A stretch of 34,738 bases of DNA from Stramenopiles sp. TOSAG23-2. Its lineage: Eukaryota. Both the position numbers and the translations under genes were made by a program. Under the pieces are notes generated by a model. That model was given only the letters and a program-made list of their open reading frames with translations. It was not told where the DNA came from and made no database searches. The DNA lies in assembly GCA_900128395.1 (NCBI GenBank), contig LT649347.1, positions 1-34,738 on the forward strand, written 5' to 3'. This document shows positions 1 to 34,738 of this stretch, one piece after another (the stretch's first letter is position 1; each line of letters begins with the position of its first letter).

Positions 1-1
1 T

Positions 2-393
2 GAATGGTATACCAAAGCAGCAGAACAAGGACATGCACTAGGTCAATGTAATCTTGGTACAATGTATTACAATGGTGATGGTGTTACAATGGATGACAAA
101 AAATCAGTTGAATGGTATACAAAATCAGCAGAACAAGGAAATGCACGTGGTCAATTTAATCTTGGCGTATGTATCAAAATGGTGATGGCGTTACAAAGGA
201 TTACAAAAAAGCAGTTGAATGGTATACAAAATCAGCAGAACAAGGATATGCACGTGGTCAATGTAATCTTGGTGAAATGTATCATAATGGTAAAGGTGTT
301 ACAAAGGATAAAGCAAAAGCTGTTGAATGGTATACAAAAGCAGCAGAACAAGGAAATACATTTGCAATTGATGCACTTAAAGACTTGTCATAA
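2..393 (+). CDS. Sel1-like repeat (SLR) protein, 3' part, with a 1-nt frameshift at ~167-168 (pseudogene or sequence error)
   Basis: 36-aa repeats of the form EWYTKxAEQGxAxGQxNLGxMYxNGxGVTxDxxKxV run from base 2. The frame switches at CTTGGC-GT-ATGTAT, where sister repeats have a full codon. Stop TAA at 391-393; 5' end lies outside the window. Confidence 0.9.
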
Positions 394-590: not shown

Positions 591-2003
591 TTACAAAACA
601 ATAGTTTTTTTTTTACATAAAATCGTATCGATCTTACGAATTGCTTGATCCATCATATTTTTATTTTGCATATTATACCTTGCACCATAACCTTTTAAAC
701 AATTCATAGCACCAATGAAGGAAGCTCGTTTTAATGTCATTTCAATTGCTTGATCCATCATATTTTTATTTTGCATATTATACCTTGCACCATAACCTTT
801 TAAACAATTCATAGCACCAATGAAGGAAGCTCGTTTTAATGTCATTTCAATTGGATATGAATGAACAATACCTTCAATGAAACCACCAATAAATGCATCA
901 CCTGCACCTGTTGTATCGACAATCGGATTTATATTTGTATCTAAATTATATGCATCTACATGATACATATCATATACATTTTCTTTTATTTTTTTAACTG
1001 CTATACAACCTTCTTCACCTAATGTTATTATTAAATATTTGCATTTAGGATAATGATCTAACATTCGTAATAGAGATATTTCCATTTTATTTAAATTATT
1101 ATTATTATTATTATTACAATAATATGTATCCTCCTTCCACTTGTTATTATTATTATTATTATTGTTTGTATTATTTCCATGCAATTCCAATGGGTAATGT
1201 TTATTTGATACAATATATGTTGCATGATTTAATAATCGACGTAAACCTTCTCCATGAATTTTCATTAATGCTTTCGATCGTAATTCAGCTTCTACTAATA
1301 TATTAATTTTTTTCTCTATTGCAATTTTTACAGCAAAATATGCAGCATCCAAATGTCGTCCATCACAATGTAATAATGATACATCATGAAATAAAGAAAG
1401 GTGATTGAATAGGAATTGTTCTGATACATCCGATATACGTTGCTCGTATGGCATCGATATGATAGTTCTTGTATCGTTTGCCACCATGACAAAGCTAGTG
1501 ACGGTTTTTTTTTTAGTATTATTTTCCTCATCTATTGTTATTTTTTCAACTTCAACTCCATCAATATTAACTTGTTCACTTTTTAATTCATCCATTAATA
1601 TCTTTCCATTCAAATCATTTCCAACTTTACTTATTAAACGAGATTTGATTCCTAATCTACTTAGTTGCACTGCAGTATTTGCAGCATTTCCACCACCACC
1701 AAGTTGTTCACTTTTTAATTCATCCATTAATATCTTTCCATTCAAATCATTTCCAACTTTACTTATTAAACGAGATTTGATTCCTAATCTACTTAGTTGC
1801 ACTGCAGTATTTGCAGCATTTCCACCACCACCAAGTTGTTGTTTCAATGCAGTTTGTTTTGTATCTTGTTTTGGAAAATTATCAACAACAACGACATAAT
1901 CTAATACTAACATACCTAAAGATAATACATAACAATTATTATCATGTTGTTTCCCGTTATTATTATTATGATGATTTTGTAATGATGAAGAAGGATTATT
2001 CAA
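591..2003 (-). CDS. PfkB/ribokinase-family carbohydrate kinase (ketohexokinase/sulfofructose-kinase-like); start uncertain, two internal duplications
   Basis: GGGGNAANTAVQLSRLG, SKVGND, IITLGEEGC and DTTGAGDAFIGG PfkB signatures. The first in-frame ATG (1913) lies inside the first conserved strand. Confidence 0.9.
   Translation of the reverse strand: MNNPSSSLQNHHNNNNGKQHDNNCYVLSLGMLVLDYVVVVDNFPKQDTKQTALKQQLGGGGNAANTAVQLSRLGIKSRLISKVGNDLNGKILMDELKSEQLGGGGNAANTAVQLSRLGIKSRLISKVGNDLNGKILMDELKSEQVNIDGVEVEKITIDEENNTKKKTVTSFVMVANDTRTIISMPYEQRISDVSEQFLFNHLSLFHDVSLLHCDGRHLDAAYFAVKIAIEKKINILVEAELRSKALMKIHGEGLRRLLNHATYIVSNKHYPLELHGNNTNNNNNNNNKWKEDTYYCNNNNNNNLNKMEISLLRMLDHYPKCKYLIITLGEEGCIAVKKIKENVYDMYHVDAYNLDTNINPIVDTTGAGDAFIGGFIEGIVHSYPIEMTLKRASFIGAMNCLKGYGARYNMQNKNMMDQAIEMTLKRASFIGAMNCLKGYGARYNMQNKNMMDQAIRKIDTILCKKKTIVL
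639..853. repeat. Exact 105-bp tandem duplication within the PfkB CDS
   Basis: Units start at 639 and 744, with AATTG microhomology at 639, 744 and 849. Duplicates IEMTLKRAS...MMDQA. Confidence 0.95.
1572..1840. repeat. Exact 132-bp tandem duplication within the PfkB CDS
   Basis: Units start at 1572 and 1704, with TTGTT microhomology at 1572, 1704 and 1836. Duplicates QLGGGGNAAN...ELKSE. Confidence 0.95.
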
Positions 2004-4057
2004 TAATACATGGAACCCATTTAAAGTTTGAAGATACTACACCTTGTGTATATGCAAAAGTCAGAAGTGATCATAGATTATTTAGAAAATATGTCAAGAA
2101 GAAAATCAGTATATTAGAAGTAGATACCGAAGCAACACAAAGTGTAAATGTTGTACGGACGAAGATAGTGGAGCAAGCATCTCATGGTATGACACACGAA
2201 GAAGGTGGTTGGCCAGCTCAACTCGCTGATGAAATAACCCTTGAAGATACTCAAAGAATAAGAAAAAGAATATTAAAAGATGATAATTTTGTAAATAGTG
2301 TAAAAAAAGCTGCTGAAAAAGTCAATTATTGCGTAAATCAAAACATTGCTATTGACATATATGAAGATTATTTCGAAGATGAAGCGAACGATCATGATTT
2401 AACAGCATCAGACACATCCATTAAAGAAATTTGTACTGTATTAGATCCTAGCCTAACACCACGTGCTGTTATCAATATGTCTTGGTCAAAAACTGATATG
2501 GAACGTATAGTTTGTGCGTATTGTAATCCAACCTTTTCATCTACATCTAGTGGCGAAAATTTGCAAGGTTATGTTTGGAATATACTAAATCCAACAAAAC
2601 CAGAATTAGAGTTGGTTCCACAATCCCAAATACGAACTGTAAAATTTCGTAAAAATGGACAAGAGATTTTAACAGGATTGAGGAATGGGACACTTAATAT
2701 TTTTGATATACGCGCTGGATCTCATCCTGTCTCCACATCTTCGATCGATTGTAGTCATGAAGAGTCGGTTAGACAAGCAGATTGGCTTGTTACAAAGGGT
2801 GGCTTTGAATGCGTTTCTGTATCTACTGATGGTAAATTATGTTTTTGGGATTCTCGTAGATTAGATTCTCCAATACAATCAAATGTCTTAAGATGTCCAA
2901 AACTATCATCCAATCCAATACGCGGTGCAAAAGGTGGTGTGCCAGGTGGTGGTGCTAGAAGAGGTGGTGGCGGATTGAACCGTATGCTTTTGAAGTACCT
3001 TTCACCATATTCTCATAATCGCGTAAAGGAATATAGTGGAAATATTTTGCCTGGTACATGTGTTGCTGTTCCAACTACTATGCTTGGAAAAATTGACATT
3101 ATAACAGGAACAGAGACTGGGTTGATACTTTTATGTTCTGGTAAAAGTAGTAGATCGGAACATAAAGATAACAATAGCAATAGCCCATCAAATAATTATA
3201 GCAGTAAAAGCAGTAGCAGCCCATCAAACAAAAACAATAATACTGGAATACACAAAAGTAATAATAATAATAATACCATTCAAGAACAAATGATCGATAA
3301 TATTTTCTTAGGACATTTATCGTCTGTCCTTTCAATCAGTCGCAACCCATGCTTTCCAAATATTTTTTTATCAACTGGTGATTGGAGTACAAAAATTTGG
3401 TCCACTGATTTACCATGTCAAATAGCAAGTACAAATTATGGGACATACCATACAACTTCTGCTATGTGGAGCCCAACAAAAGTAGATACTTTTTTCGTAA
3501 CCGATGCTAGTGGAACAGTAAAAGCTTGGAAATATGAAACAATGGAACAAAAATGTTTTTATGAAAAGAAATTAACCAGTTCGCCAATTGTATCAATGGA
3601 AATGTGCAGTGATGGAGCATCTGCCATTGTAGGTGATAGTAAAGGTCGTACGATGGTATTAAATTTAAGTGAAAATTTATGTCGAAAATCTCAACGTGAT
3701 GAAAAGCAATTTATGAATTTAATGTCTAAACGAAAATTGACTGTAGGTGCTCAAGCAAGATTTGCAAGGCGTAAAGCAGAAGCATTTCCTGGTAGTAATG
3801 AGGAACATGATGATATAGCAGTAAATTCTGATGTTTATTTAGCTGAAGATTCCCATAATAATGATCCATCCGCTCAAAGGAATAGAAGCAGCAGAAGTAG
3901 AAGTGCTAGCATCTCGAAAGATGTTGATACTCTCTTACAATCTTTTGAGTTCAAGAAAATAGATGAAGAAGTAGATAAATTTTTTGTTAATCTTGTAAAT
4001 GAAAATTTACCACAATCAGTGATACGCATGTACGATGATGGGAAAGAAGAGAGTTGA
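1982..4057 (+). CDS. DNAI2: Axonemal dynein intermediate chain 2-like WD40 protein (divergent)
   Basis: GMTHEEGGWP and NQNIAIDIYEDYF match IC2/DNAI2 N-terminal motifs. WD40 repeats include SVSTDGKLCFWDSR and SRNPCFPNIFLSTGDWSTKIW. First ATG is at 1982. Confidence 0.8.
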   Translation: MMKKDYSIIHGTHLKFEDTTPCVYAKVRSDHRLFRKYVKKKISILEVDTEATQSVNVVRTKIVEQASHGMTHEEGGWPAQLADEITLEDTQRIRKRILKDDNFVNSVKKAAEKVNYCVNQNIAIDIYEDYFEDEANDHDLTASDTSIKEICTVLDPSLTPRAVINMSWSKTDMERIVCAYCNPTFSSTSSGENLQGYVWNILNPTKPELELVPQSQIRTVKFRKNGQEILTGLRNGTLNIFDIRAGSHPVSTSSIDCSHEESVRQADWLVTKGGFECVSVSTDGKLCFWDSRRLDSPIQSNVLRCPKLSSNPIRGAKGGVPGGGARRGGGGLNRMLLKYLSPYSHNRVKEYSGNILPGTCVAVPTTMLGKIDIITGTETGLILLCSGKSSRSEHKDNNSNSPSNNYSSKSSSSPSNKNNNTGIHKSNNNNNTIQEQMIDNIFLGHLSSVLSISRNPCFPNIFLSTGDWSTKIWSTDLPCQIASTNYGTYHTTSAMWSPTKVDTFFVTDASGTVKAWKYETMEQKCFYEKKLTSSPIVSMEMCSDGASAIVGDSKGRTMVLNLSENLCRKSQRDEKQFMNLMSKRKLTVGAQARFARRKAEAFPGSNEEHDDIAVNSDVYLAEDSHNNDPSAQRNRSSRSRSASISKDVDTLLQSFEFKKIDEEVDKFFVNLVNENLPQSVIRMYDDGKEES

Positions 4058-12735: not shown

Positions 12736-14475
12736 ATGTCCACAATTCAAAATTTTATAAAACGTCATTATATAAAAATTACCTGTTCTAATACAAGATT
12801 TCACAAATATAATAATAATTATACTAATTATACAAATTACAATTATACCACACGTCAATTTTCCAATAATAATAATTATGCCATGCGTGTATATTTAATA
12901 GCTGGCGAACCATCTGGTGATGTTATTGGTGCAAATTTAATAGAAAGTTTAAAAAAACAAACAAATAATAATAGTATTGAATTCTCTGGTGTTGGTGGTG
13001 AACGTATGATTCAAGCAGGTTTATCTAAATCAATCATTTCAATTGATAATATTGCAGTTATGGGTACTATTGAATTAATTAGTAAAATATATAATTTAAA
13101 TAAATGTGTAAATAATGTTGTTGATGATATTATAGACAACGATCCTGATGTTATTGTAGCAATAGATGCAAAAGGTTTTAATAAAGCCGTTTTAAAACGA
13201 TTATATAAAAAAAAATATGGTAAAGCAGATCGTCAATTATTACAGAACGATTTACCTATATCACCTACTATTATTGGGAAGAAAATATCACCACCACCGC
13301 CTATTGTACAATATGTTGCCCCATCCTATTGGGCATATAAATCATCATCAAAAGATAAACCAAAAGAATTATTAAAACATTTTAATAAAATTTATCATAT
13401 ATTACCATTTGAGGGTGAATTATTAAATGAAAACAATGTTCCAAATCTATATGTTGGTCATTCCGCAGTTGAAGAAATGATGAAATTATTTCATAATAAT
13501 CTTAATAATAATAATAGTAGAAACAATCATAACAACTTCAACAATAATAACAACGATAATAATAATTTTTTATTGCATCTACGAAAGAATATCGATTCAT
13601 ATCGTGAAAATGCTCGAATACGGTTTAAGATTGATGATAATAATAGTATTAATAAAATTGATAAAGTTTTACTATTATTTCCCGGTAGTCGATTACAAGA
13701 AGTTGATAAATCATTGCCATTGATTTACGATATGTTGAAAAATCTTCTTATTAATAATGTTAATGATGACAATATAACACAAAAATACAATGAAAAATGG
13801 ACTATTATCATACCAACATTATCTGTAAATACTCCAGTTGGTAAAAAAGTCGCTGCGTTTGTAAATAATTGGAAACAAAATCATAAAAACATGCCATACA
13901 TAAACAATATAATATATGTAAACAATGATGATGTAGAGATGAAACGAGATTCATTTGCTGCTGCTGATGTTGCAATTGCTATGTCAGGTACCGTTGTTAC
14001 AGAATTAGCATTAGCAAATATTAAAACATTAGTAATTTATCCAGGATCAATGATTACTGGTATGTTAGCAAAACAATTAGCAAAAGTGAAATATGTTTCT
14101 ATTCCTAATATTATGACAAATAGATTATTAATTGATGAATTATTATTTGATAATTGCACAGTTGAAAATTTAACAACAAAAGCAGAATCATTATTGTTTA
14201 ATTTTAATATTAGTAAAGAGAAGGAGGAGGAGGAAGAAGAAGAAGGGAAATCTGATAAAGATAATAATACTATTCTTGATGATTGTTTATTATCATTATT
14301 AAATCATAATTATACAATGGTAGAACATGAAAATAGGAAAATAGTAGAAGGAAACGATGAGGAAGAACAAGAAGAAGAAAAAAAGGATGTTGTTCATTTT
14401 CATTTTCCAAGTGACATTGCTGCAAATGATATATTGAAATTAGGAAATGATTATATATTTCATAATAGAAGATAA
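12736..14475 (+). CDS. lpxB: Lipid-A-disaccharide synthase (GT19), probably mitochondrion-targeted
   Basis: VYLIAGEPSGD, AVMG, QYVAPSYWAY, ILPFE, YVGH, FPGSRLQEV, SGTVVTELAL and YVSIPNI motifs; ~49-aa N-terminal extension without acidic residues. Confidence 0.93.
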   Translation: MSTIQNFIKRHYIKITCSNTRFHKYNNNYTNYTNYNYTTRQFSNNNNYAMRVYLIAGEPSGDVIGANLIESLKKQTNNNSIEFSGVGGERMIQAGLSKSIISIDNIAVMGTIELISKIYNLNKCVNNVVDDIIDNDPDVIVAIDAKGFNKAVLKRLYKKKYGKADRQLLQNDLPISPTIIGKKISPPPPIVQYVAPSYWAYKSSSKDKPKELLKHFNKIYHILPFEGELLNENNVPNLYVGHSAVEEMMKLFHNNLNNNNSRNNHNNFNNNNNDNNNFLLHLRKNIDSYRENARIRFKIDDNNSINKIDKVLLLFPGSRLQEVDKSLPLIYDMLKNLLINNVNDDNITQKYNEKWTIIIPTLSVNTPVGKKVAAFVNNWKQNHKNMPYINNIIYVNNDDVEMKRDSFAAADVAIAMSGTVVTELALANIKTLVIYPGSMITGMLAKQLAKVKYVSIPNIMTNRLLIDELLFDNCTVENLTTKAESLLFNFNISKEKEEEEEEEGKSDKDNNTILDDCLLSLLNHNYTMVEHENRKIVEGNDEEEQEEEKKDVVHFHFPSDIAANDILKLGNDYIFHNRR

Positions 14476-15378: not shown

Positions 15379-16302
15379 GTTTGTTTAATTATTTATTATA
15401 TATTATATATTCCTTTAAAATGATAATCCAAAATAGACAGACGATATATTCTTGTTGTATATATAGTGTGTTCTAAAGTACTTTGTTCGTGTATAACATA
15501 TTTGTATTATAAATATATATATATTGTCACTATTTTAATGGAATTTCCATGCTAAATAATAAAACCTCTTTTGTATTTTCAATACTGTGTAGTGTTATTA
15601 TAATATATAAATTGACAAATTTATTAAATTGAGTGGTCAATCACTGGCCAGAACATATTCTCCATCCTGTGTCTATAGTAATTTATGGCTTTCTCGGTAT
15701 TACACCTGCTGTGTACCTACTATATGATGGAGAGTGGAAAATGACTGGTATTCTATTTTCCCATTCAAGTATGAATTATTATCATTTGGTAGCGCCGCTA
15801 AGATCTATAATGCTGTGTACATAGTATCTAATGCTGTGTCCCTCGTGTTGTGCCTCGTCTCTCCATCGAGTTCAAAGTTCAAAACAGGTCATAAGTCTTA
15901 TTATATAGGGTATTAGTAGGAATTAATAGTATCCAGGTCGGTAGAGTTTTAGTAAAAACAACAATTTGAATTTGAATTATTTTTTTAACCTTAACCTGGC
16001 AACGCGCAACGACAAAATAAAAACGACGCGTGCATACAAGAATTTAACCTGGACATACTATACTATACAGTAAATAGCACAATATATATCTATATCCAAA
16101 CAAGAAGAAGTTTATTATTTGTTATTTTATTAATTTATATTCAAATTAGAGATGTTGTTGATTTTCAAAGAAAACTATATATAGACGACAAAAGAAAGAA
16201 AGATTTTCAGTATAATTAAACGTGGAAACATATACATTAATAAACTTGTATAATTTATTAGCCAGAACCAATATATACATACAGAAAGAGCAACACATAT
16301 AC

Positions 16303-17157
16303 ATGGGTGTCCTTGTTGTATATGGTAAAGATGGGTGTGAATTCTGTGGTTTGGTTATGGACATTTTAGAAAAATTATTAAATACTATTAAAACGAATGA
16401 ACCAAATATTGATTTAAAAATTAAATTAATTGATTGCCAAGATGGTGCGCGTGCTGCACAGTGTATGAAATTGACAAAGAAAAGAACTGTACCACATATT
16501 TTTTTCAATGAATTGTATATTGGAGATTCGAGTAGATTAATAGCATTAAATAATGAAGATCCACAAGGTTTATATCAACAAGCATTAAATGCAGGAAAAA
16601 TAGAAAGTAATTTTCCACCACCAGCAGAAGCTGCAATGATAAAAGTTACAGAAGATGCTGCTTTTTCTTCACAACCTACGAAAGGACAAGTACAAAATTT
16701 ATTAAATTTTGGTATTAAATCAATGATTAATTTATGTACAAATGATGAATTTCAAGGTGATTTTTCCACAGAGGAAGAATGTAAAGTGGCAAAACAAATT
16801 GGTGTTACATATTTTCATAAACCATTTCATCAAACTTCAAATGATAATTTAGCCAATATAGCAAATGAAATTGTGGAGATAATAAACAATTGTCCAAAAC
16901 CAGTATTAGTCCATTGTGATTCCGGGCGACGTGCATGTTTATTAGTATTATTACAAGCATCACGTGTCATGAAAGCTAATGTAAATAAAATTGGAGAATG
17001 GAGTATAGGTTTAGGACATAATTATTCAGAAAATCCACCATCACCGAAACAATTACCACATTTAAAATCAAAATTTAGAATTAAAGAAGGAAGAGGAGTT
17101 GATTGGATTACAGGATTTTATTCCTATTTAAAATTAGAAGCGTTAGGAAAGCAGTAG
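16303..17157 (+). CDS. Glutaredoxin fused to a DUF442/Blh-like (PTP-fold) sulfurtransferase/phosphatase domain
   Basis: YGKDGCEFC and TVPHIFFNELYIG (Grx); SSQPT, GIKSMINLC and PKPVLVHCDSGRRA (CX4R loop). First ATG is at 16303. Confidence 0.8.
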   Translation: MGVLVVYGKDGCEFCGLVMDILEKLLNTIKTNEPNIDLKIKLIDCQDGARAAQCMKLTKKRTVPHIFFNELYIGDSSRLIALNNEDPQGLYQQALNAGKIESNFPPPAEAAMIKVTEDAAFSSQPTKGQVQNLLNFGIKSMINLCTNDEFQGDFSTEEECKVAKQIGVTYFHKPFHQTSNDNLANIANEIVEIINNCPKPVLVHCDSGRRACLLVLLQASRVMKANVNKIGEWSIGLGHNYSENPPSPKQLPHLKSKFRIKEGRGVDWITGFYSYLKLEALGKQ

Positions 17158-22983: not shown

Positions 22984-25077
22984 ATGTTGGAACAAACTCA
23001 AGTGACGCTAGAGTTATCAGGAAAACAAGATGGTGAGAAGAAAGCCATACCAGAATCGGCGGAAGCTCGAGGAAATACATATAGATTAACAAGGTGTCAG
23101 AAACTGAGGATATTATGTGGGTATGAAAGCATCTTATTACTCTTAATGTTTCTAGCAGTTGGTGGGGGGCATTTCTTTACATTTTGGCTGTACCGCAGCA
23201 GTAATTGGAGGTGGGTGTATTTTGCCATGGCATTATTTTCGTGGTTAGTCTCGATAAGTTTTCTAGCAAGAACAATTTCGGCCGTATTTTCTACTGAAAA
23301 AAAACGGAAGAAAGAACCTACATCACAAGATTCAACTGATGCGAAAAAAATGACAAATGATAATGCATCTGAAACACATAAACCTGCATTGAATAACCCA
23401 AATGAACCTACACAAACTACAAATAGATGCGGAAATTGTAAATATTTTAACAAGGTACGTACCATTATAACGAGAATTAAGAATGACGTGTTTGAAGTTA
23501 ACGGAAAGTATTATCTTGTCAAGCTGTACGTGTCTGAGGCAATAGAAAATGGCTGGCAGCTATACACTATGTTCAACCTTTATTTATGTATATTGCCCAT
23601 TCGAATGGCTACTATATTATCTTTTTTCCTGGTGGCAGAGCTAGTAGCAAATTTATACGTGACATTTCATCTTAGTTCGCAAATTGTTCGAGATCGTTTG
23701 CTTATAATTGACATGATTACTGATTTGTTTTGCCTTGCCTTTCCTTTGTTGTACAATTTTTTTGCATATCGAATGCCTCTGTCTATTTTTGAAAGCTTCC
23801 AAATTTTACTGATTCCAACATTATGCTTGATAAGTAAGGCAAATGATGTTTGGGTGGATATAATACATGTGGATCTTCAACGAATCGAGACAAAACGGGT
23901 AGCTTCAAGAAGAAGATCAAGCCGGAGGTCTAGCATTTTTGCCTTACAATCTAACAGAGAAATGTTTGGCAACCAATTGCAACAGTTTCCTAAAAAATGT
24001 CGATATGGATTTGCTGTTTTAAATCTATTCTTTATGCTATGTTTTTTTGCAATTGGGATTATCCAGGTTGTATATTCTATATCCTATGAAAACAATGGGA
24101 GACAAGAGTGTCAAAAACTGTATACAAAACAAATTTGGGATCAATGTGTACTAAAAATCCCATTTTGCAAGAACCCTTTTGTTGGTAAATGCGATTGTGC
24201 AGTGTTAACTCTCAAAAATTATACAGAAACAAAATTTCCACCATCATTTGAGGGCTTACAATCTTTAAAAATGCTCAATATATATACAGGGCGATTAGAG
24301 GAATTACCAGATAATATTGGAGAAAAACAGGCCAACTTAGTCGAAATTGCCATAATACGCAACCCTTTAAAACGATTGCCTAATAGTGCTTCGAAATTAA
24401 AGCAATTGCTAAGACTTAAACTAATTAGCACCAACATAACTGAAATACCAAATCCTGCTCAATGGACATCTTTAATAACACTAATAGTCAGGCTGTCCAA
24501 GCTGCGTATTTTACCAGAAAACATTGGCTTATTACAAATGCTAAATTGGTTGGATCTGAATAATAATCTGATACAAAAGCTCCCTGATAGCATCGGTTCT
24601 TTGGAAAATTTACGAGTACTTTCAGTATCTCATAACAGTATAAGCGAGCTACCAGATGCAATAACTGCATTGAAGAGGCTACAATATATATATGGAGTTA
24701 ACATCACACTAAGTAAGCTACCAAAAAATATAGGAAACATGAAAGCATTAACCGGAATTGACGTGCGTAATAATTTATTGAAGGAACTTCCAGCTTCAGT
24801 ATCGAATTTAAAGAATATTGCAGAATTTTATGTAGCAAGAAATCCTCTATGCCCAGATCATAAATTCCCAAGTAATCTAGTTGAAGCTGAAGGATTATGC
24901 GTGGAACAATGTTCTGTTGGATGTCAAATTTCATGGAAAGGAGATGGTTTTTGCGATGATGCTGAGCATAGTCATGGATATTCAGATGGATATATTCCTC
25001 CTAAAGCAAATGCTGGATGTAACACAGCAAATTGTAATTATGATGGTGGAGATTGTTCTCAGCCTTACGAGGAGTAA
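22984..25077 (+). CDS. Multi-pass membrane protein with C-terminal leucine-rich repeats and an LNR/Notch-like Cys-rich domain
   Basis: About 7 hydrophobic segments, a Cys cap (CVLKIPFC...CDC), about 9 LxxLxLxxNxLxxLPxxIG repeats, then CSVGCQISWKGDGFCD...CNTANCNYDGGDC. Confidence 0.88.
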   Translation: MLEQTQVTLELSGKQDGEKKAIPESAEARGNTYRLTRCQKLRILCGYESILLLLMFLAVGGGHFFTFWLYRSSNWRWVYFAMALFSWLVSISFLARTISAVFSTEKKRKKEPTSQDSTDAKKMTNDNASETHKPALNNPNEPTQTTNRCGNCKYFNKVRTIITRIKNDVFEVNGKYYLVKLYVSEAIENGWQLYTMFNLYLCILPIRMATILSFFLVAELVANLYVTFHLSSQIVRDRLLIIDMITDLFCLAFPLLYNFFAYRMPLSIFESFQILLIPTLCLISKANDVWVDIIHVDLQRIETKRVASRRRSSRRSSIFALQSNREMFGNQLQQFPKKCRYGFAVLNLFFMLCFFAIGIIQVVYSISYENNGRQECQKLYTKQIWDQCVLKIPFCKNPFVGKCDCAVLTLKNYTETKFPPSFEGLQSLKMLNIYTGRLEELPDNIGEKQANLVEIAIIRNPLKRLPNSASKLKQLLRLKLISTNITEIPNPAQWTSLITLIVRLSKLRILPENIGLLQMLNWLDLNNNLIQKLPDSIGSLENLRVLSVSHNSISELPDAITALKRLQYIYGVNITLSKLPKNIGNMKALTGIDVRNNLLKELPASVSNLKNIAEFYVARNPLCPDHKFPSNLVEAEGLCVEQCSVGCQISWKGDGFCDDAEHSHGYSDGYIPPKANAGCNTANCNYDGGDCSQPYEE

Positions 25078-27211: not shown

Positions 27212-27689
27212 TTTAGTAAAAGATATTTATAATATATATATATATAGTCTGTGTGTAAATATTTCTCTTCTACATTTCCCCTCCTCGTTAATCTTACTAT
27301 ACATTCGATATATCTTGTTAACTTCAATTTTATTATGGTGCTATGGGCGAAGACTTATAACTTATAACTATAGTAGTCGTCCGTGGTGTATCTCGATAAA
27401 CGGATTTTTGCTATTGCCGATCTTAATCTGCCGATCTCAAAAAAAATCATGCCGAAAACCTTATTAAATCCGAACGAAAACCTTATATTTAGATTGTTGT
27501 ATGCCAGCCTAAGGCCAGTATTAATATGTATTTTTAAGGCAGCTATAAGTACTTTTAAAAAAATATATTAATATAACTGTGGTATGCAACGTATGATATA
27601 TATTATATATACAGTATAATATTAATATATACTTATGTCCCCCACACACATCACACCAACTCTTTTACGCGTACTAGCATTTTTTGTTT

Positions 27690-29006
27690 TTAAACTTTTT
27701 TCATATTATTCATCCATTGTTTATTTGGGGGTAAAATACTATTAAATGGACCTTGAACTTTGTTAGTTTTTTGCATTTTGGAAACATCTCGATGACGCAA
27801 TTTTTGATCAATTGCTTCTAATTCAACTGCTGTTACCCATTCCAAAAAAGGATCCAATTTCGACCTCGCTATTGTTAAGATACCATCTTGAAATCGCATT
27901 CCTGGAACGACTTGTAACTCATGCTTTTCTGGCATTTTACCATGTCTCCATTCTTTAACAACAATTGATGGTAATATTTGAAGTTCATATAAATATCGAA
28001 ATAAAACCAATGCTTTATTACTATCATAAATTTCTGACTGTACAACTAAACGGCGTTCTAAATAAGACATTAAAAGAATCTCCGCATCTTTTCGAACATT
28101 GTGATATTTCTCAAACAACTTTTTCAATGTCAATGGAAATGATTTCTCCAAGGTTTCATGATTTTCTGTGTGAAAAATAATTTCAAACCAAAATCGAAGA
28201 ATTTCTAAATTATCTAAACTAAAATGTTTTAAAGTTTTTTTCACTGCTTTGAAAAAATTAACACGTGATTTTTTCGATGAAACCATTGCATTTTTTACAT
28301 GTACACTAAAATTTTCATGGTTCTTCCCAGAAAATCTTTGATAGGCAAGGTCACAACGTTTTACATTATCTCTATTTTCTAATTTTAACTTTAACATTTT
28401 ATCACGCTCTAGCCGGCGTTTTTCAGCTGCTTTTGGACCTATCTTGCCTCTTTGGGAAAAACGTGATTTTAAATTGTTAATGTTATGTTTTAAATGTTTA
28501 TCATTATTCATTCTCTCCCATTGCATTTGTCTACCATTTTTAAAACCTGGGGAGAGACCTATCACTTCCGAACCTTTTGGATACCGCTTAGCTTTCGTTT
28601 TTCGCCCTCTGCTTTTTTTCAAAGGGGAGTTAGTATTAAAAGTAGGACTGAAAAGAGACTTTGGTAAACCATGGTTTGGCGGTGTAGGTTGCATTGTATT
28701 TGTATTATTCATATAGGAGTAGTCTTTTTCTATTTCATTTTTAACTGTTTCTGAAAGGGACTGCATTGGTATAGGGCTCTTTAGAGATTGCGTATTTGTA
28801 CCTAATTGATTTAACAATTCACGTCCTACAATTTCATTTTGATTACTTTTTACATAACGAGTCCTGCTAGCAGTATTAGCATTACCAAAATTAATAAGAT
28901 TACCACTATCATTATCATTTACTTTTTTCATTTTTTCAGCGGATAATCCATCTATTTTACTCAAAACATTTTGAGTATTCTTCAACGAGTCATTCATGCC
29001 GTCCAT
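27690..29006 (-). CDS. Hypothetical protein with a divergent C-terminal W2 (eIF5/eIF2B-epsilon/eIF4G-type) domain
   Basis: LFRYLYELQILPSIVVKEW and ARSKLDPFLEWVTAVELE resemble W2 AA-boxes. First ATG is at 29006. Confidence 0.65.
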   Translation of the reverse strand: MDGMNDSLKNTQNVLSKIDGLSAEKMKKVNDNDSGNLINFGNANTASRTRYVKSNQNEIVGRELLNQLGTNTQSLKSPIPMQSLSETVKNEIEKDYSYMNNTNTMQPTPPNHGLPKSLFSPTFNTNSPLKKSRGRKTKAKRYPKGSEVIGLSPGFKNGRQMQWERMNNDKHLKHNINNLKSRFSQRGKIGPKAAEKRRLERDKMLKLKLENRDNVKRCDLAYQRFSGKNHENFSVHVKNAMVSSKKSRVNFFKAVKKTLKHFSLDNLEILRFWFEIIFHTENHETLEKSFPLTLKKLFEKYHNVRKDAEILLMSYLERRLVVQSEIYDSNKALVLFRYLYELQILPSIVVKEWRHGKMPEKHELQVVPGMRFQDGILTIARSKLDPFLEWVTAVELEAIDQKLRHRDVSKMQKTNKVQGPFNSILPPNKQWMNNMKKV

Positions 29007-29330
29007 TAGAAACAATGTATATATTATTGAATATTAACGATAATAATATACACTGATGAAGTTGGTAGAAAACAATAGTAGTATTATATAATTTTATAAT
29101 AATATTATTGATTCGTGATAACATCACATTGATTACGATCGTTCGGATTGTATTGATATTGTTGGAATTGCATGCAATTGCATAGGTAATATTAATAATA
29201 GTATTTTTTTGTTGAATTTTTTATAACTGCTATGCAACGATTTTTTTTATCGACGACGATGTGAATGGCCTTTTAGTAATCTTAATTATAATGCTATGTG
29301 AATGCTAATTATAATATTTATAAAAAAACA

Positions 29331-29521
29331 GCAGCTTTCCAAGCTTTCCAGCCTTTCCTAGAGCGGATCCTCTCTAGCCTTTCCAGGCTTTCCAGGCTGT
29401 CCAGGCTTTCCAGCTTTCTTTAATAGCACTTTACCTGCTGGCTGGCTGGCTGGTATAATCAGCTTTCCAGCTTTCCAGGCTTTCTGGCTTTCCTGGCTTT
29501 CCAGGCTTTCGTTCCAGGCTT
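29331..29521. repeat. Degenerate 8-9 bp minisatellite (GGCTTTCCA) in two blocks
   Basis: Repeated (G)GCTTTCCA(G) units at ~29333-29418 and ~29461-29521; a GC-rich island in AT-rich intergenic DNA. Confidence 0.85.
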
Positions 29522-29765
29522 TTTTCATTTTTTCAAGTCATGGCAGCACCATGCCTTATAGGCATGCATGCTGCAGTTATTTATTATTTCGAAATTATAT
29601 ATATACTACAGATAATTAATATTGATTTTAGATGATTGTTTATTACTTTTTACCTGGTTAATTTAACAAGCAAGAAAATCATCACCACATGATATACTGC
29701 ATGTGAAAGCTTCTCACTGATATAAAAGTATTGATAAACTATAGAAAGAGAGAAAAGATGACAAT

Positions 29766-32700
29766 ATGATTAAAACATTGCATGATAAAGACCCAAATAA
29801 ATGGCAAAAAACAACATTAAAACATTTTAAAAATGTTATGGAAAAATTATGTCATCCTGAACAAGAAGAGGAACAAAATACAAAAGATGAAGAAGAAGAA
29901 AAAGAACAAATTGTTATTGACCCATATATAATATTAACAACAAAAGATTATTTAGGGCGTATTCCTATATATCATGCAATTACAAACGGAGCAAATAAAT
30001 ATGTAGTTGATTACATTAAGAATATTATGGTAGAAGGTGGAGTCTCTGAAAAATTTTTAAACAACATAATTGGCAATGCTACTATCACAAGTGCTGAAAA
30101 CAATAATACTGACAATAATAATAACTGTAGAATGATAGCTGGTCTATACGAATGTGACATTGATGCAGAAGCGTGGAAATATACAACTGCAGATCATGTC
30201 AAATTATTAATGAAAGAAAAAATAAAAGAGAAGAAAAAAATGAATGGTACAAGTCCTGGTGGAAGTAAATACGATGTAAACGATACCAAACGTATGGAAC
30301 AAATGCTTAATACAGATGGTGGACGATGGGGTAATATACCGATATTTTATGCTGTATATTATAGCGCGAAAATGAGTGTTGTTAAATATATGTTTGAAAA
30401 TAATAAATATGGAACTTTAAATTGGCGTAGTGACACTGGTTGGACCTTGCTCCATTACGCTGCTATTTGGAATCAATGCCATTTGTTGCCATATCTAATA
30501 TTGGCATATGGAATGAACGAAAATGGATTATATGTTAAAGATGAGGATGGAATGACTGCACTTGATGTAGCAAATGATTTTACTAGGAAAGATGCTGCAA
30601 CAATACTATCAAAACCTTTTATTACATTAAAGGAATATTACATTCATATGGTAAAAACTGAGAAGCATAACAAAGACATAACGTGTAAATTTAATGAAGA
30701 ATTGAAAACTTTTTTAAATATTATAAAAGATGAATATGCATCTCAAACGAAAAATATTGAAAAATACTATGATTTTGAAAAAATAGATGATGATGATGAA
30801 ACGTATATGTTTGAATTTTTAGAAAATTACGATGAAACATTTATGAAAATAGATATAGAAAATAAAAACGAAGATACAAAATTGTTTGCAAAAGATGGTC
30901 CAGCGTTAATAAATTATATCAACTTGTTTAAGATATGGGATTATGGATCTATCAAAGAAGAGGAAAAAGTCATAATTTGGAAACATTTACTTAATTTATG
31001 TAATATTGCATTGCAGTACATAGATATAGAAGAAAGCGATATTGACTTGTTGGTAGAAGAATATTCAATATTACATTTAGCAATTTTATTAAAGGGAGAT
31101 TTGGACGGCATTGACTTCATTTTAAATGAAGAGCCTGATTTAACATGCAAACTAGATATTTTAGGACGAACACCATTGCACTGCATACTCAATAATATAA
31201 ATGTTAATGATTTAGAATCGCTTGAATTAGGATTGACATATTTTAAACGGCTTGTGCATGTGAAACCGTCATCTGCAACAATTTTAAATGTCGACAAAAA
31301 AACGCCATTACAATTAATATGCGAATTACCATACCATTCAATTTTATCAATACCATCAAATGCAAATAGACGGATACGCGAAAGCGAGAGAAATGACGAG
31401 GATCAAGACGTTTGCAATAGCAAGAAAGATGACATTTCAACTGTTCATTTAGAAATAATTAAAGTTTTATACAATGCAATGCCATCAACAACGTTTCACG
31501 ATCAAGAACATCATGATCGTCAAAATATAATCAAATCCTATTGCATCTGGCCAAAAGCATTATTATGGTTTAAATTGCTTGGATCGACATATGCGCGGTA
31601 TACTATTACTCAATCTACCAACATATCAACAATACACAAATCAAATATGGCAATAGTCCATAATGCAGTGGATTTAATGGAAAATAATAAAAATGTCGTG
31701 TTAAAAATAATGAAAGATAAAGAAAATTTCTTAAATGAAATTTATGCTAGGAAAATTAAGGATGATGCATATAGAAATAATATTGATGAATGTGCAATTA
31801 AAGTTTTAGGTTGGCATGTACCATTTGATCAAGACGCATTTGCAACAATAGATAAAAATGCTTCTAAGTTAAGCCAAAAAATTGTAAACAGGTATGAAAA
31901 CGCAGAACGTACAAACAACGCTGGCGAATATGTACTAGTGTTAGAACCAGCTATATGCACATTATATGATGATATTAATACTCAGTTTTTTGCAGGCCGA
32001 AATATTCAAGAAGTAATTCAAACTTTTTATGAAATTGTTACTCGTGTAAATCAATTACACAAATTAGGTCTTGTTCATTGTAACATTAAGCCAAAAAATA
32101 TTTTAAAAGTAAAAAGTAATGCAACAACGGGTGATCCTAGTAGGAATTTTAAATATAAACTTGCAGACTTATGTCAATGTAAAAATATTGGTGAATTTCG
32201 TTGTATAAAAGAAGAAGCCACAGGCGACAAAGGCAAACCAATAAGTGACAATGAAAAGTTTGATTTAAATAGTAAGAGTGGAGAATATTCTTCCGCCTAC
32301 ATGGCCCCAGAATTTGCACAACATTTTTTCGCAAATTTACAACCACAGAAAGGGATTGAAGTTAAACCATCTATGGACATTTGGTCTTTAGGAGTAATTT
32401 TATATGAATTGTGCACTGATGAATTCTTATTTAAAAAAGACACCAGTCGAGATAATTTATTAAACAATATAGATAAAGCTAGATTATGTTTATGGCATAC
32501 AATACCTGATGATAATTATTTAGACAAAGTTTTTTTAAATACTATCATCGAAAAAAAAGAAGGTGAAGAGGATGATGAAAAGAAAAAAAGAACGGATGCA
32601 ATTAAAGCTTCCGTTTTCTTTGCGAAAAATTTGATCCGCTGGTGCTTAAAAGGGAAGGAAAATGAAAGACCATCCATTGATGACATATTCAACCATCCTT

Positions 32701-34106
32701 TCCTATCTAGCTTAAAACAAAAAGAGGAGGAAGAAGAACAGGATGAAGAAACAGATGATGAAGGTGTTTATGAGGAAAATGAAAGTGATCATAATAATAA
32801 ACCAGGAAACGAACAAGATGGGGACATAGTAGAAATGAAATATCATGGATTTTTAAGCTATCCACAAGGTGATGGGGGTATTCTTGGTGCAAATTTCTAT
32901 AATGTACTACATAATAATTTAGGGATAAACTTATGGTATGATATGCCAATCACGCATACACATTCATTTGAAAAAATGAAAAAGGGTATACTTGCCAGCG
33001 ATATTTTCTTCGTAATTTTAACAGAAGATATATTATCCACACAAATTTGCCAAAATGCATTTGCAGTCGCTATTGAATATAACAAGCCAATTCAAATAAT
33101 AATTGAAAATGAAATGCGTTTTAACGGGTTTGATATAGATACGGAATGGGAACAGCGTTTAGTACCTGCTGATTTAGAAAGAAAACAAGAAGACGCATTG
33201 AGGAAAGCAGATGGGGAATGGCAAAAAGCTATTGGGTTATTAAATTTTACAAAAGCAGACACATCATCTGGAAGAGATATTGGTGAATTAGAAAAGGATA
33301 TCGCAAAAAAAGAAAAGGTTGTGATGAAATTGAAACTCGAAATCAAAAGCAGAGAAAATCTAGAAAAAATAATTGAAGAGGTAAAAGCTAATCTACAAAA
33401 TGCTGTGCCATATCGCCGTTTGCCTTTCGAGCAATGTGCTATGTTGTACGAAATATGCAAACGTAATCAATGGCATTTACCTCCAAAAATATCGAAAAGC
33501 GTGTATGTAGATACAATTCAAGTGGATAATGCTTATTTCAGACAATTGAAACCACGATGTAAAGTATACGTCATTTACAATTCGTTTAATGGCGATGATA
33601 TTCTAAATGAAATTAAAGAAAATATTCCATATATCACATTTACGGAGGATATTAATGATGTACCATTAGTGACATCCTACTTAGTTATATTAACAAAAGC
33701 AATACGAATTAGAAAAAGGGATGCTTTTTTCATGAAATGTTTAAACGATGATCAACGTTATGAAAACGTTGATAGGTTAATAACAATTACAAAACGGCAT
33801 CACGAGGATAGTACAGCAGTTTATAGTGATAAAGATGGATGGTTATTTGGCTCAGATGAGCAAAGAAAAGAACCGCGTGAGATTGCAGATGCAATTTCAA
33901 ACCATGAACCTATATATTATCGCCCAAAATCACATTGTATTGACACAAATGATCGTAAGAAAGAAGATGACCAAGCATATCCATATCGACATGAATTTAA
34001 CTGTATGAAAATGGAATTATTAAAACAAATTCGTCGTATGCATGAAGAGTATTGCAATATATTATTTGATCCTAAAAAAAGAAAGAAGGACAAGGCGGAG
34101 AGGTAA
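29766..34106 (+). CDS. Ankyrin repeat - virus-like insert - ankyrin - pseudokinase - TIR-like multidomain protein
   Basis: Ankyrin motifs (GWTLLHYAA, DEDGMTALDVA, GRTPLH); kinase motifs VVLK, HCNIKPKN, KLADLC, YMAPE, DIWSLGVILYEL and RPSIDDIFNHPF; TIR-like YHGFLSY...LWYD...GILASDIFFVILT...ICQNAF...KPIQII. Confidence 0.88.
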   Translation: MIKTLHDKDPNKWQKTTLKHFKNVMEKLCHPEQEEEQNTKDEEEEKEQIVIDPYIILTTKDYLGRIPIYHAITNGANKYVVDYIKNIMVEGGVSEKFLNNIIGNATITSAENNNTDNNNNCRMIAGLYECDIDAEAWKYTTADHVKLLMKEKIKEKKKMNGTSPGGSKYDVNDTKRMEQMLNTDGGRWGNIPIFYAVYYSAKMSVVKYMFENNKYGTLNWRSDTGWTLLHYAAIWNQCHLLPYLILAYGMNENGLYVKDEDGMTALDVANDFTRKDAATILSKPFITLKEYYIHMVKTEKHNKDITCKFNEELKTFLNIIKDEYASQTKNIEKYYDFEKIDDDDETYMFEFLENYDETFMKIDIENKNEDTKLFAKDGPALINYINLFKIWDYGSIKEEEKVIIWKHLLNLCNIALQYIDIEESDIDLLVEEYSILHLAILLKGDLDGIDFILNEEPDLTCKLDILGRTPLHCILNNINVNDLESLELGLTYFKRLVHVKPSSATILNVDKKTPLQLICELPYHSILSIPSNANRRIRESERNDEDQDVCNSKKDDISTVHLEIIKVLYNAMPSTTFHDQEHHDRQNIIKSYCIWPKALLWFKLLGSTYARYTITQSTNISTIHKSNMAIVHNAVDLMENNKNVVLKIMKDKENFLNEIYARKIKDDAYRNNIDECAIKVLGWHVPFDQDAFATIDKNASKLSQKIVNRYENAERTNNAGEYVLVLEPAICTLYDDINTQFFAGRNIQEVIQTFYEIVTRVNQLHKLGLVHCNIKPKNILKVKSNATTGDPSRNFKYKLADLCQCKNIGEFRCIKEEATGDKGKPISDNEKFDLNSKSGEYSSAYMAPEFAQHFFANLQPQKGIEVKPSMDIWSLGVILYELCTDEFLFKKDTSRDNLLNNIDKARLCLWHTIPDDNYLDKVFLNTIIEKKEGEEDDEKKKRTDAIKASVFFAKNLIRWCLKGKENERPSIDDIFNHPFLSSLKQKEEEEEQDEETDDEGVYEENESDHNNKPGNEQDGDIVEMKYHGFLSYPQGDGGILGANFYNVLHNNLGINLWYDMPITHTHSFEKMKKGILASDIFFVILTEDILSTQICQNAFAVAIEYNKPIQIIIENEMRFNGFDIDTEWEQRLVPADLERKQEDALRKADGEWQKAIGLLNFTKADTSSGRDIGELEKDIAKKEKVVMKLKLEIKSRENLEKIIEEVKANLQNAVPYRRLPFEQCAMLYEICKRNQWHLPPKISKSVYVDTIQVDNAYFRQLKPRCKVYVIYNSFNGDDILNEIKENIPYITFTEDINDVPLVTSYLVILTKAIRIRKRDAFFMKCLNDDQRYENVDRLITITKRHHEDSTAVYSDKDGWLFGSDEQRKEPREIADAISNHEPIYYRPKSHCIDTNDRKKEDDQAYPYRHEFNCMKMELLKQIRRMHEEYCNILFDPKKRKKDKAER

Positions 34107-34738
34107 ATAATAAAGGTCCTAATAGACTTTTTAGAAGGATAGTATTTATACATATATTCAAAAAATATAATTAAAATAAAATATAACCAATATATTTAAC
34201 ATGCATATATATGATGGTTAATATAACATATGAGTAAGAGAAAAACACATATATGATGGTTAAAATCTAAGTTATAATATGCATAATATATGATACATGA
34301 TATAATTTATATATAATATATGAGTAAGAGAACATTTTATATATATATTTAAAATACCGTAAAATTTGTTTTAATATTTCAATACATCTCTCTCTACTGT
34401 GCTACTCTCTACGAACGGTACCTAAATTCTTCTCTGTTCAACTTCTGTTTTCGTTTTGATTAATTATTAATTTTGATATTTCACCTTTTAATTGTATCAA
34501 CAAATGATTTATTTTTTTATATTTCTTCGGTATTCCCCCCCCCCATAGAATTATTCAAATCATCAGCATTACTATGATGATGGTCCGCTAAGGACGATAA
34601 ATTATCGTCTCCTCCAATTGTTTTCCTATCTTTCCTATTTAACAAATCTTTTTCATATACATTTTCTAAACGGCCTCCATCAATGGAGCACAATAATTAG
34701 AATCTGTACTTGGTCCTATCAGATTTGTATACTGAGGA

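Follow-up and report, generated by a model that had tools for sequence, protein, structure and literature searches.

A giant-virus-like domain within an ankyrin, pseudokinase and TIR-like protein of a stramenopile: a candidate captured bait

How a segment resembling a giant-virus protein came to lie next to the ankyrin repeats of an apparent protist signaling protein, and what it might do there, are the questions raised by a locus in contig LT649347.1 of Stramenopiles sp. TOSAG23-2 (assembly GCA_900128395.1). The window analyzed here is the whole stretch of 34,738 nucleotides, read on the forward strand, and all positions refer to it. It contains a gene, P0001, in which ankyrin repeats are followed by a virus-like helical domain, an ankyrin-like block, a predicted pseudokinase, a TIR-like domain and a conserved C-terminal region. 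The original prediction, made from the letters of the window, held that the segment at 30687-31019 (+) belongs to a family of small hypothetical proteins of the Nucleocytoviricota, and that it was captured and fused into the sensor region of a TIR-bearing signaling protein, where it could serve as a decoy for a viral partner. These positions are free of stop codons in frame 1 and give a 111-residue peptide, KFNEELKTFLNIIKDEY ... IIWKHLLNLCNIALQY, which corresponds to residues 308-418 of the 1446-residue product of the open reading frame (ORF).

An exhaustive phmmer search of 1.84 billion representative proteins with residues 285-436 (P0005) recovered nine matches at E<=1e-3. These include two short fragments of the same gene, a 151-residue protein (P0009), a protein of 1451 residues with the same architecture as P0001 (P0007; E 5e-15), and five stand-alone proteins of 367-439 residues (P0010-P0014; E 5.8e-6 to 9.4e-4) that are matched over their first ~110 residues. 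The five stand-alone proteins belong to no Pfam family and share the pattern M.KFN..L..FL..IK..YP.Q ... NEIIFSK ... IWND..L.D....NIWKY, with which the pattern given in the original prediction agrees. Their alignment led to 36 loci on giant-virus contigs of IMG/VR with G+C contents of 18-46%, among which six pairs look like the same sequence filed twice. The family is unnamed, and we label its N-terminal domain KFN-IWKY. Scanning the viral contigs directly with the host insert yielded no relative, the family being reached only through the stand-alone proteins, and a search of the ESM Atlas with the insert gave no usable match.

Comparison of the host segment with an alignment restricted to 25 full-length viral members (A2) by means of hhalign gave a probability of 98.7% and an E-value of 1.7e-16, pairing host residues 305-429 with viral columns 5-121; the homologous stretch (bases 30678-31052) is thus slightly longer than the one first noted. 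A hidden Markov model built from 20 viral N-terminal domains alone scored 62.3 bits on the host segment, against 10.9 bits for the best of 2000 shuffled versions, while the best of the remaining 139 of the window's 140 six-frame pieces reached 8.1 bits. Given the profile alignment and these two controls, the resemblance reflects neither composition nor a degenerate ankyrin repeat. The insert is 30-36% identical to its nearest viral relatives over viral residues ~5-121, and in a 22-row alignment that includes the host W107, I120 and L124 are invariant and Y51, F90 and W121 are conserved in at least 90% of the rows. Taken together, these comparisons of sequence show that the segment is homologous to the N-terminal domain of a family of giant-virus proteins of 290-440 residues; the viral family put forward in the original prediction is real and includes the segment. 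On the viral side the similarity runs from the first residues as far as the domain boundary, such that the host protein contains the viral N-terminal domain alone and is devoid of the middle (IPELL.G.IG.LAKEIA...) and C-terminal (RLRKKLEEKK) regions. The absence of these regions, and of the neighboring gene for a minor capsid protein described below, suggests that the insert is a captured domain rather than a member gene of the family.

The viral contigs carry genes for the nucleocytoplasmic large DNA virus (NCLDV) major capsid protein, an Rpb3/11 fusion and the minor capsid protein P9. The family shows a tight linkage to the last of these: the gene directly downstream on the same strand matches the profile of the P9 transmembrane helices (PF19066) in 33 of the 35 testable loci, all 33 matches being above the cut-off, or in 27 of 29 loci once the six apparent duplicates are removed. 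One locus (L010) is untestable as its contig stops before the next gene, and the two exceptions are L011 and L027. The gap between the two genes is 25-130 bases, as typified by L025:9989-10981 and L025:11018-11686. In the three loci that were scanned in full (L025, L005 and L027) the Rpb3/Rpb11 fusion lies upstream on the opposite strand, followed in L025 by one small ORF, the family gene and a gene of ~220 residues, with the NCLDV major capsid protein nearby; in L005 and L027 two small ORFs separate the fusion from the family gene. The viral family itself has no sequence match in Pfam, NCBIfam or PDB. According to PMC6344570, the P9 protein of PBCV-1 is a minor capsid protein of the pentasymmetron and may anchor the capsid to the inner membrane through a membrane helix predicted at its N-terminus. 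The tight linkage to P9 points to a role in particle or membrane assembly, and on this gene context we are inclined to regard the viral protein as an assembly factor of one or the other kind. An uncharacterized and widely conserved giant-virus morphogenesis gene is thereby flagged, which is of interest by itself.

Structure prediction agrees with a helical fold distinct from the ankyrin repeats. With the 22-row alignment, AlphaFold2 modeled the host segment as wholly helical, with a predicted local distance difference test (pLDDT) value of 79.7 and a predicted template-modeling score of 0.75; a model of residues 180-560 from the single sequence had a pLDDT of 34.7 and was unusable. In a Foldseek search of BFVD, 18 of the first 19 rows had a probability of at least 0.9 and template-modeling scores of 0.42-0.66, with E-values of only 0.04-0.5, none reaching 0.001. 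All named rows down to rank 35 are from giant viruses, the top match being a 316-residue protein of Aureococcus anophagefferens virus (25% identity) and the others including proteins of Yasminevirus, Terrestrivirus, Catovirus, Hokovirus, Heterosigma akashiwo virus, Feldmannia virus, pithoviruses, Medusavirus, Bodo saltans virus and Pyramimonas orientalis virus. Several of these matches are only 105-206 residues long, which also suits the description as small hypothetical proteins. A Foldseek search of PDB with the segment found no match better than E 2.5, and the best of 48,161 PDB chains was the N-terminal domain of mpox A7 (PDB: 8IZU). PMC11074635 describes A7, the homolog of vaccinia A6, as a 372-residue viral membrane assembly protein with a helical N-terminal domain of ~121 residues, required for membrane assembly, and a C-terminal lipid-binding cage, and reports its interaction with A11. 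This domain, although the closest PDB chain to the segment, shares no sequence or profile similarity with it: the Pox A6 family was absent from Pfam scans of the viral members (E<=0.1) and of the insert (E<=10), and the A2 profile retrieved neither A6 nor A7, nor anything else relevant, from the PDB sequences at E<=10. That the viral family is the counterpart of poxvirus A6 is a doubtful possibility; if true, it would be the long-sought mimivirus-like counterpart of the A6 membrane assembly proteins.

On the host side, three cellular-type proteins, namely P0001, P0154 and P0168, share the whole architecture with the insert at the same site and are 35-45% identical to each other (Table 1). P0154 (1881 residues) is the full-length form of P0007 and shares 36% identity with P0001 over 1025 residues, and P0168 (1357 residues) is 41% identical to P0001 over the C-terminal 432 residues. 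The P0168 insert is likewise related to the viral-only alignment A2 (hhalign 98.4%, E 7.2e-15). Since proteins of this divergence all have the insert at one common position, the fusion is old and has been maintained, and the regional identities mark the insert as a maintained, folded part of the protein. P0154 additionally contains a ~430-residue insertion of coiled-coil repeats (LLPEHP/LLPVH ... KH..E units) at residues ~890-1420, between the pseudokinase and the TIR-like domain, which is missing from P0001 and P0168.

Table 1. Modules of P0001, their positions in the window and their conservation in the two related proteins
Feature	Residues	Window positions	Strand	Evidence	Pairwise identity, P0001/P0154/P0168
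Whole intronless ORF, P0001	1-1446 (1446 aa)	29766..34106	+	single uninterrupted frame	
Ankyrin block 1	194-282	30345..30611	+	Pfam Ank_2, 43.5 bits on the whole protein and 50.3 bits on the N-terminal piece	52-58%
Virus-like helical domain (insert)	305-429	30678..31052	+	homologous to N-terminal domain of giant-virus family	34-41%
Ankyrin-like block 2, weak	~436-519	31071..31322	+	Pfam Ank_2, 21.4 bits	
Protein-kinase fold, predicted dead	703-980	31872..32705	+	Pfam Pkinase, 79.7 bits (cut-off 31.7)	37-41%
TIR-like domain, tentative	1029-1145	32850..33200	+	Pfam TIR_2, sub-threshold	26-41%
Conserved C-terminal region	1151-1446	33216..34103	+	conserved among P0001, P0154 and P0168	37-47%

The setting of the insert between two ankyrin blocks, as originally described, is borne out in part. 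The insert is non-ankyrin and helical, and the first block is secure, with Ank_4, Ank_3 and Ank likewise above their Pfam cut-offs; the second falls short of the Ank_2 cut-off of 27.3 bits (E 3.7e-4), although a three-way alignment shows that it is retained in P0154 and P0168. When Pfam was run on the segment alone there was no ankyrin signal, and the sole row was Adhesin_P1_N at an E-value of 0.2. The kinase-like module, suspected from the outset to be a pseudokinase, has as its best PDB sequence matches PIM-1, CDPK, ULK4 and ROCK. In the alignment to PIM-1 the stretch vhcnikpknil of P0001 lies opposite lHRDIKDENIL, the HRD motif being replaced by HCN at residues 771-773 (bases 32076-32084). 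The corresponding tripeptide is HCN in P0154 and HGN in P0168, such that asparagine takes the place of the catalytic aspartate in all three, and the aspartate of the DFG motif, which reads DLC in P0001, is not conserved across them. This constellation of residues indicates a conserved pseudokinase that is predicted to be catalytically dead.

The TIR-like domain is the least certain of the modules. The neighbors of the C-terminal part in the ESM Atlas (30 matches at 0.90-0.93) are mostly TIR_2 clusters, in agreement with the proposal of a TIR-bearing signaling protein, but the Pfam TIR_2 scores of 20.7-23.2 bits in P0001 and 21.2 bits in P0154 are all under the 28-bit cut-off. The region in P0001 has no match in PADLOC, in NCBIfam or, by phmmer, in PDB. 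In the three-way sequence alignment, the candidate column for the catalytic glutamate of NADase TIR domains contains N in P0001, H in P0154 and E in P0168. The TIR identity of residues 1029-1145 thus stays tentative, and the conserved region that follows them corresponds to no Pfam family.

What might such a protein do with a viral domain? The explanation that we consider best overall, and which stands about an even chance of being correct, is that the captured domain serves as bait in an ankyrin, pseudokinase and TIR-like protein. By analogy with known systems, the host copy could plausibly, if tentatively, be a bait for the viral family protein itself or for its partner. During infection, as the virus factory forms, the insert would bind the viral family protein, or P9 or another assembly protein as its partner, by mimicry; this binding would alter the ankyrin module and relieve an ankyrin-mediated auto-inhibition. 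As in RNase L, dimerization might then be driven by the pseudokinase; signaling, NAD+ depletion or cell death would follow from the clustering of the TIR-like and C-terminal modules. The most specific version, a receptor that senses giant-virus particle assembly through co-assembly of its insert with the viral protein or P9, and in which clustering of the pseudokinase and TIR-like modules triggers NAD+-dependent signaling or suicide, is possible but rather unlikely. If this version were true, P0001 would be the first immune receptor from outside plants and fungi to carry a bait of giant-virus origin.

Several known systems offer partial parallels. Plant NLRs (nucleotide-binding leucine-rich-repeat receptors) with integrated decoys are exemplified by RRS1-WRKY and RGA5-HMA. 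As in these, an unusual domain that may be a bait lies in the sensor part of a TIR-bearing signaling protein; unlike them, P0001 has no NB-ARC domain or LRR, its insert resembles a viral protein rather than the host target of an effector, and neither diversified paralogs nor a paired helper were seen for it. Mouse Fv1 is a restriction factor derived from a retroviral gag gene. The comparable feature is a fragment of a viral structural or assembly gene that is kept by the host and could engage viral assembly by homotypic mimicry; the source here is, however, a giant DNA virus, only one domain is involved, and it is fused to signaling modules. RNase L combines ankyrin repeats, a pseudokinase and a KEN RNase domain, and SARM1 combines ARM, SAM and TIR domains with auto-inhibition of the TIR by the repeat domain. 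Both share with P0001 the succession of a repeat sensor, a dimerizing or oligomerizing module and a C-terminal effector. A Pfam scan of whole P0001 at E<=1 detected neither a KEN/RNase nor a SAM domain, in contrast to RNase L and SARM1 respectively; the effector part is the weak TIR-like domain with the C-terminal region, and the kinase is not specifically similar to that of RNase L, so that the likeness to RNase L is one of architecture only. Full-text literature searches turned up no paper in which giant viruses are connected to immune receptors of viral origin or to integrated decoys or domains, and the nearest related preprint concerns a viral TIR-nuclease with an architecture different from that of P0001. 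Molecular accounts of how marine protists defend themselves against giant viruses are, to our knowledge, almost lacking. The gene is a concrete receptor candidate that itself hints at what it may bind, namely a conserved viral protein whose gene lies beside that of P9, and it would bring the integrated baits of plants and the virus-derived restriction factors of animals into the arms race between protists and giant viruses.

A number of observations weigh against a classical decoy receptor. Beyond the sub-threshold TIR_2 scores, NB-ARC/STAND and LRR domains are absent from P0001, since whole-protein Pfam at E<=1 lists only the Ank, Pkinase and TIR_2 families. Paralogs with different inserts at the same site, which the original prediction suggested looking for, were not found in word- or pattern-limited searches, and neither was an expansion of the family. 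The word-based search with residues 180-560 returned just two proteins, the near-identical P0003 and an ankyrin protein that is unrelated, and a metagenome scan returned only L037, L038 and a distant kinase (L039). All three relatives found carry the same insert, no paired helper was seen, and among 10 near-identical versions the insert varies no more than the remainder of the protein does. A complex predicted, without alignments, between the host insert and the N-terminal domain of a viral member (L003) received a score of 0.01, which speaks neither for nor against binding.

Some of these observations lend weight to the strongest alternative, namely that the viral domain was domesticated for a non-immune role. 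It might, for instance, provide an ordinary ankyrin-pseudokinase scaffold with a surface for contacts to proteins or membranes, and its descent from a virus would be of historical significance only. The restriction to one conserved form, shared by three lineages in place of a growing and diversifying family of receptors, the unexceptional variability of the insert and the weak TIR assignment would all fit such a role. However, a pseudokinase combined with a TIR-like domain is typical of immune and cell-death signaling, and the TIR_2 clusters among the ESM Atlas neighbors point in the same direction. Furthermore, window positions 29766-34103 differ from the matching part of an independent metagenome contig (L037:6001-10338) by 34 non-synonymous and 32 synonymous changes, a high ratio for a conserved gene and faster change than a housekeeping scaffold would lead one to expect. 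Every region except ankyrin block 1 has non-synonymous changes between the two. On balance, we see a non-immune role as a minority option that nevertheless merits serious consideration.

A further question is the direction in which the domain passed between virus and host. A maximum-likelihood tree was computed for 58 domain sequences, comprising 55 viral or viral-like ones (at less than 70% identity) and the three host inserts. The latter form one clade (ultrafast bootstrap 100, SH-like approximate likelihood-ratio test 99) inside a 17-row set together with 14 viral rows of a "long" subfamily (100/98), apart from the 41 other viral rows. An approximately unbiased (AU) test did not reject a separate clade of the 14 viral rows (p 0.42), so the host clade is either sister to this subfamily or nested inside it. 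The tree is unrooted and hence cannot by itself give the direction of transfer. The converse scenario, in which the domain was born in a protist receptor family, copied by an ancestral giant virus, for example as a receptor-blocking mimic, and then spread among viruses, draws on this: the viral sequences all fall into a single clade if the root is placed on the host branch, the host may, by the AU test, be sister to the nearest viral subfamily, and giant viruses often acquire host genes. Against it, the viral family is broad, spanning the above range of G+C contents and at least three deep clades; its two-part architecture and its adjacency to P9 are fixed; and fold relatives extend across many giant-virus families. 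Only three cellular carriers of the domain were found, and of the 120 matches listed in a profile search with the "longer" profile, 119 are proteins of 268-433 residues without Pfam domains and the only long one is the P0001 gene. Moreover, homology running from the first viral residues to the domain boundary is what would be expected if the 5' end of a viral ORF had been fused. These considerations render the converse scenario improbable, and the distribution of the domain makes transfer from virus to host likely, though not proven. Of the capture originally proposed, a single event in the host lineage, from a virus of the "long" subfamily, is accordingly the most economical version and probably the right one, although the unrooted tree does not fix its direction.

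That the gene might be an assembly chimera, or wholly viral or part of an endogenous viral element, would be conceivable in view of the uncultured source of the window and of the many ankyrin proteins and kinases that giant viruses encode, but the evidence makes it hardly credible. A near-identical protein cluster has 23 members, seven of them full-length (1445-1446 residues), from ENA, NCBI, JGI and Logan, and the frame is open in all 10 near-identical versions that were compared. The independent contig L037 is collinear with window 27592-34668 at 94-98% identity, upstream neighbor included, and at least half of the sampled words of 30300-31400 are present in 14 DNA runs. Short contigs from four RNA libraries of three studies (two polyA, one oligo-dT) match the gene with 0-4 mismatches; two of them (X16 and X17) span 30687 and another (X15) spans 31019, the coverage of the gene being partial. 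As DNA can occur in RNA libraries, these contigs are weak evidence of transcription; like L037, they bridge both boundaries of the segment first noted. The neighbors are cellular housekeeping genes, and no relative of the whole protein was present in the viral contigs as scanned with two peptide patterns. The window shows no block of viral genes with hallmarks, as a giant endogenous viral element would. A chance resemblance, with the segment being a decayed ankyrin repeat or a helical linker of low complexity in AT-rich DNA, which the richness of the segment in K, N, E and I and its ankyrin flanks might suggest, is refuted by the hhalign E-value and the shuffle control and runs counter to the invariant W and IW..L columns common to host and virus, the lack of ankyrin signal and the confident non-ankyrin model, leaving it a negligible probability.

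On the whole, the window is nuclear DNA of an intron-poor eukaryote and not of a virus. Its G+C content is 29-37%, and housekeeping ORFs lie on both strands, encoding a PfkB kinase, a WD40 protein, a UbiA prenyltransferase, Der1, LpxB, ribosomal protein uS15, a glutaredoxin-phosphatase fusion, a DEAH/HA2 helicase and an LRR protein. None of the 14 other window ORFs of at least 150 residues is an NCLDV hallmark gene, all being cellular or unassigned. Numerous unrelated RNA contigs match at window 34249-34280, just downstream of the P0001 ORF, with ends that hang free to either side. This stretch is probably a repeat or low-complexity element of common occurrence, and the depth there is accordingly uninformative on the gene.

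Some of the neighboring genes deserve separate mention. Two genes upstream of P0001, at 22984-25077 (+), a 697-residue LRR ORF (LRR_14 79 bits, LRR_8) has a weak Notch LNR match at its C-terminal end and may be another receptor-like protein. A 579-residue ORF at 12736-14475 (+) matches LpxB, the lipid-A-disaccharide synthase (E 1.7e-55), in an otherwise eukaryotic context; it is a lipid A gene of bacterial type, such as are known from eukaryotes that bear plastids. The 311-residue ORF at 16222-17157 (+) combines glutaredoxin with a dual-specificity/PTP-like phosphatase, the phosphatase matches all being below their cut-offs. The PfkB kinase ORF at 591-2003 (-) overlaps the WD40 ORF at 1811-4057 (+) by ~190 bases when counted from the first TTG, and the true starts of both are probably internal ATGs. 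Finally, window 1-354 recurs with 83-89% identity in a staggered, tandem-like arrangement at L037:13284-13904 and L037:16063-16338, downstream of the gene, and looks like a dispersed or satellite repeat of the genome.

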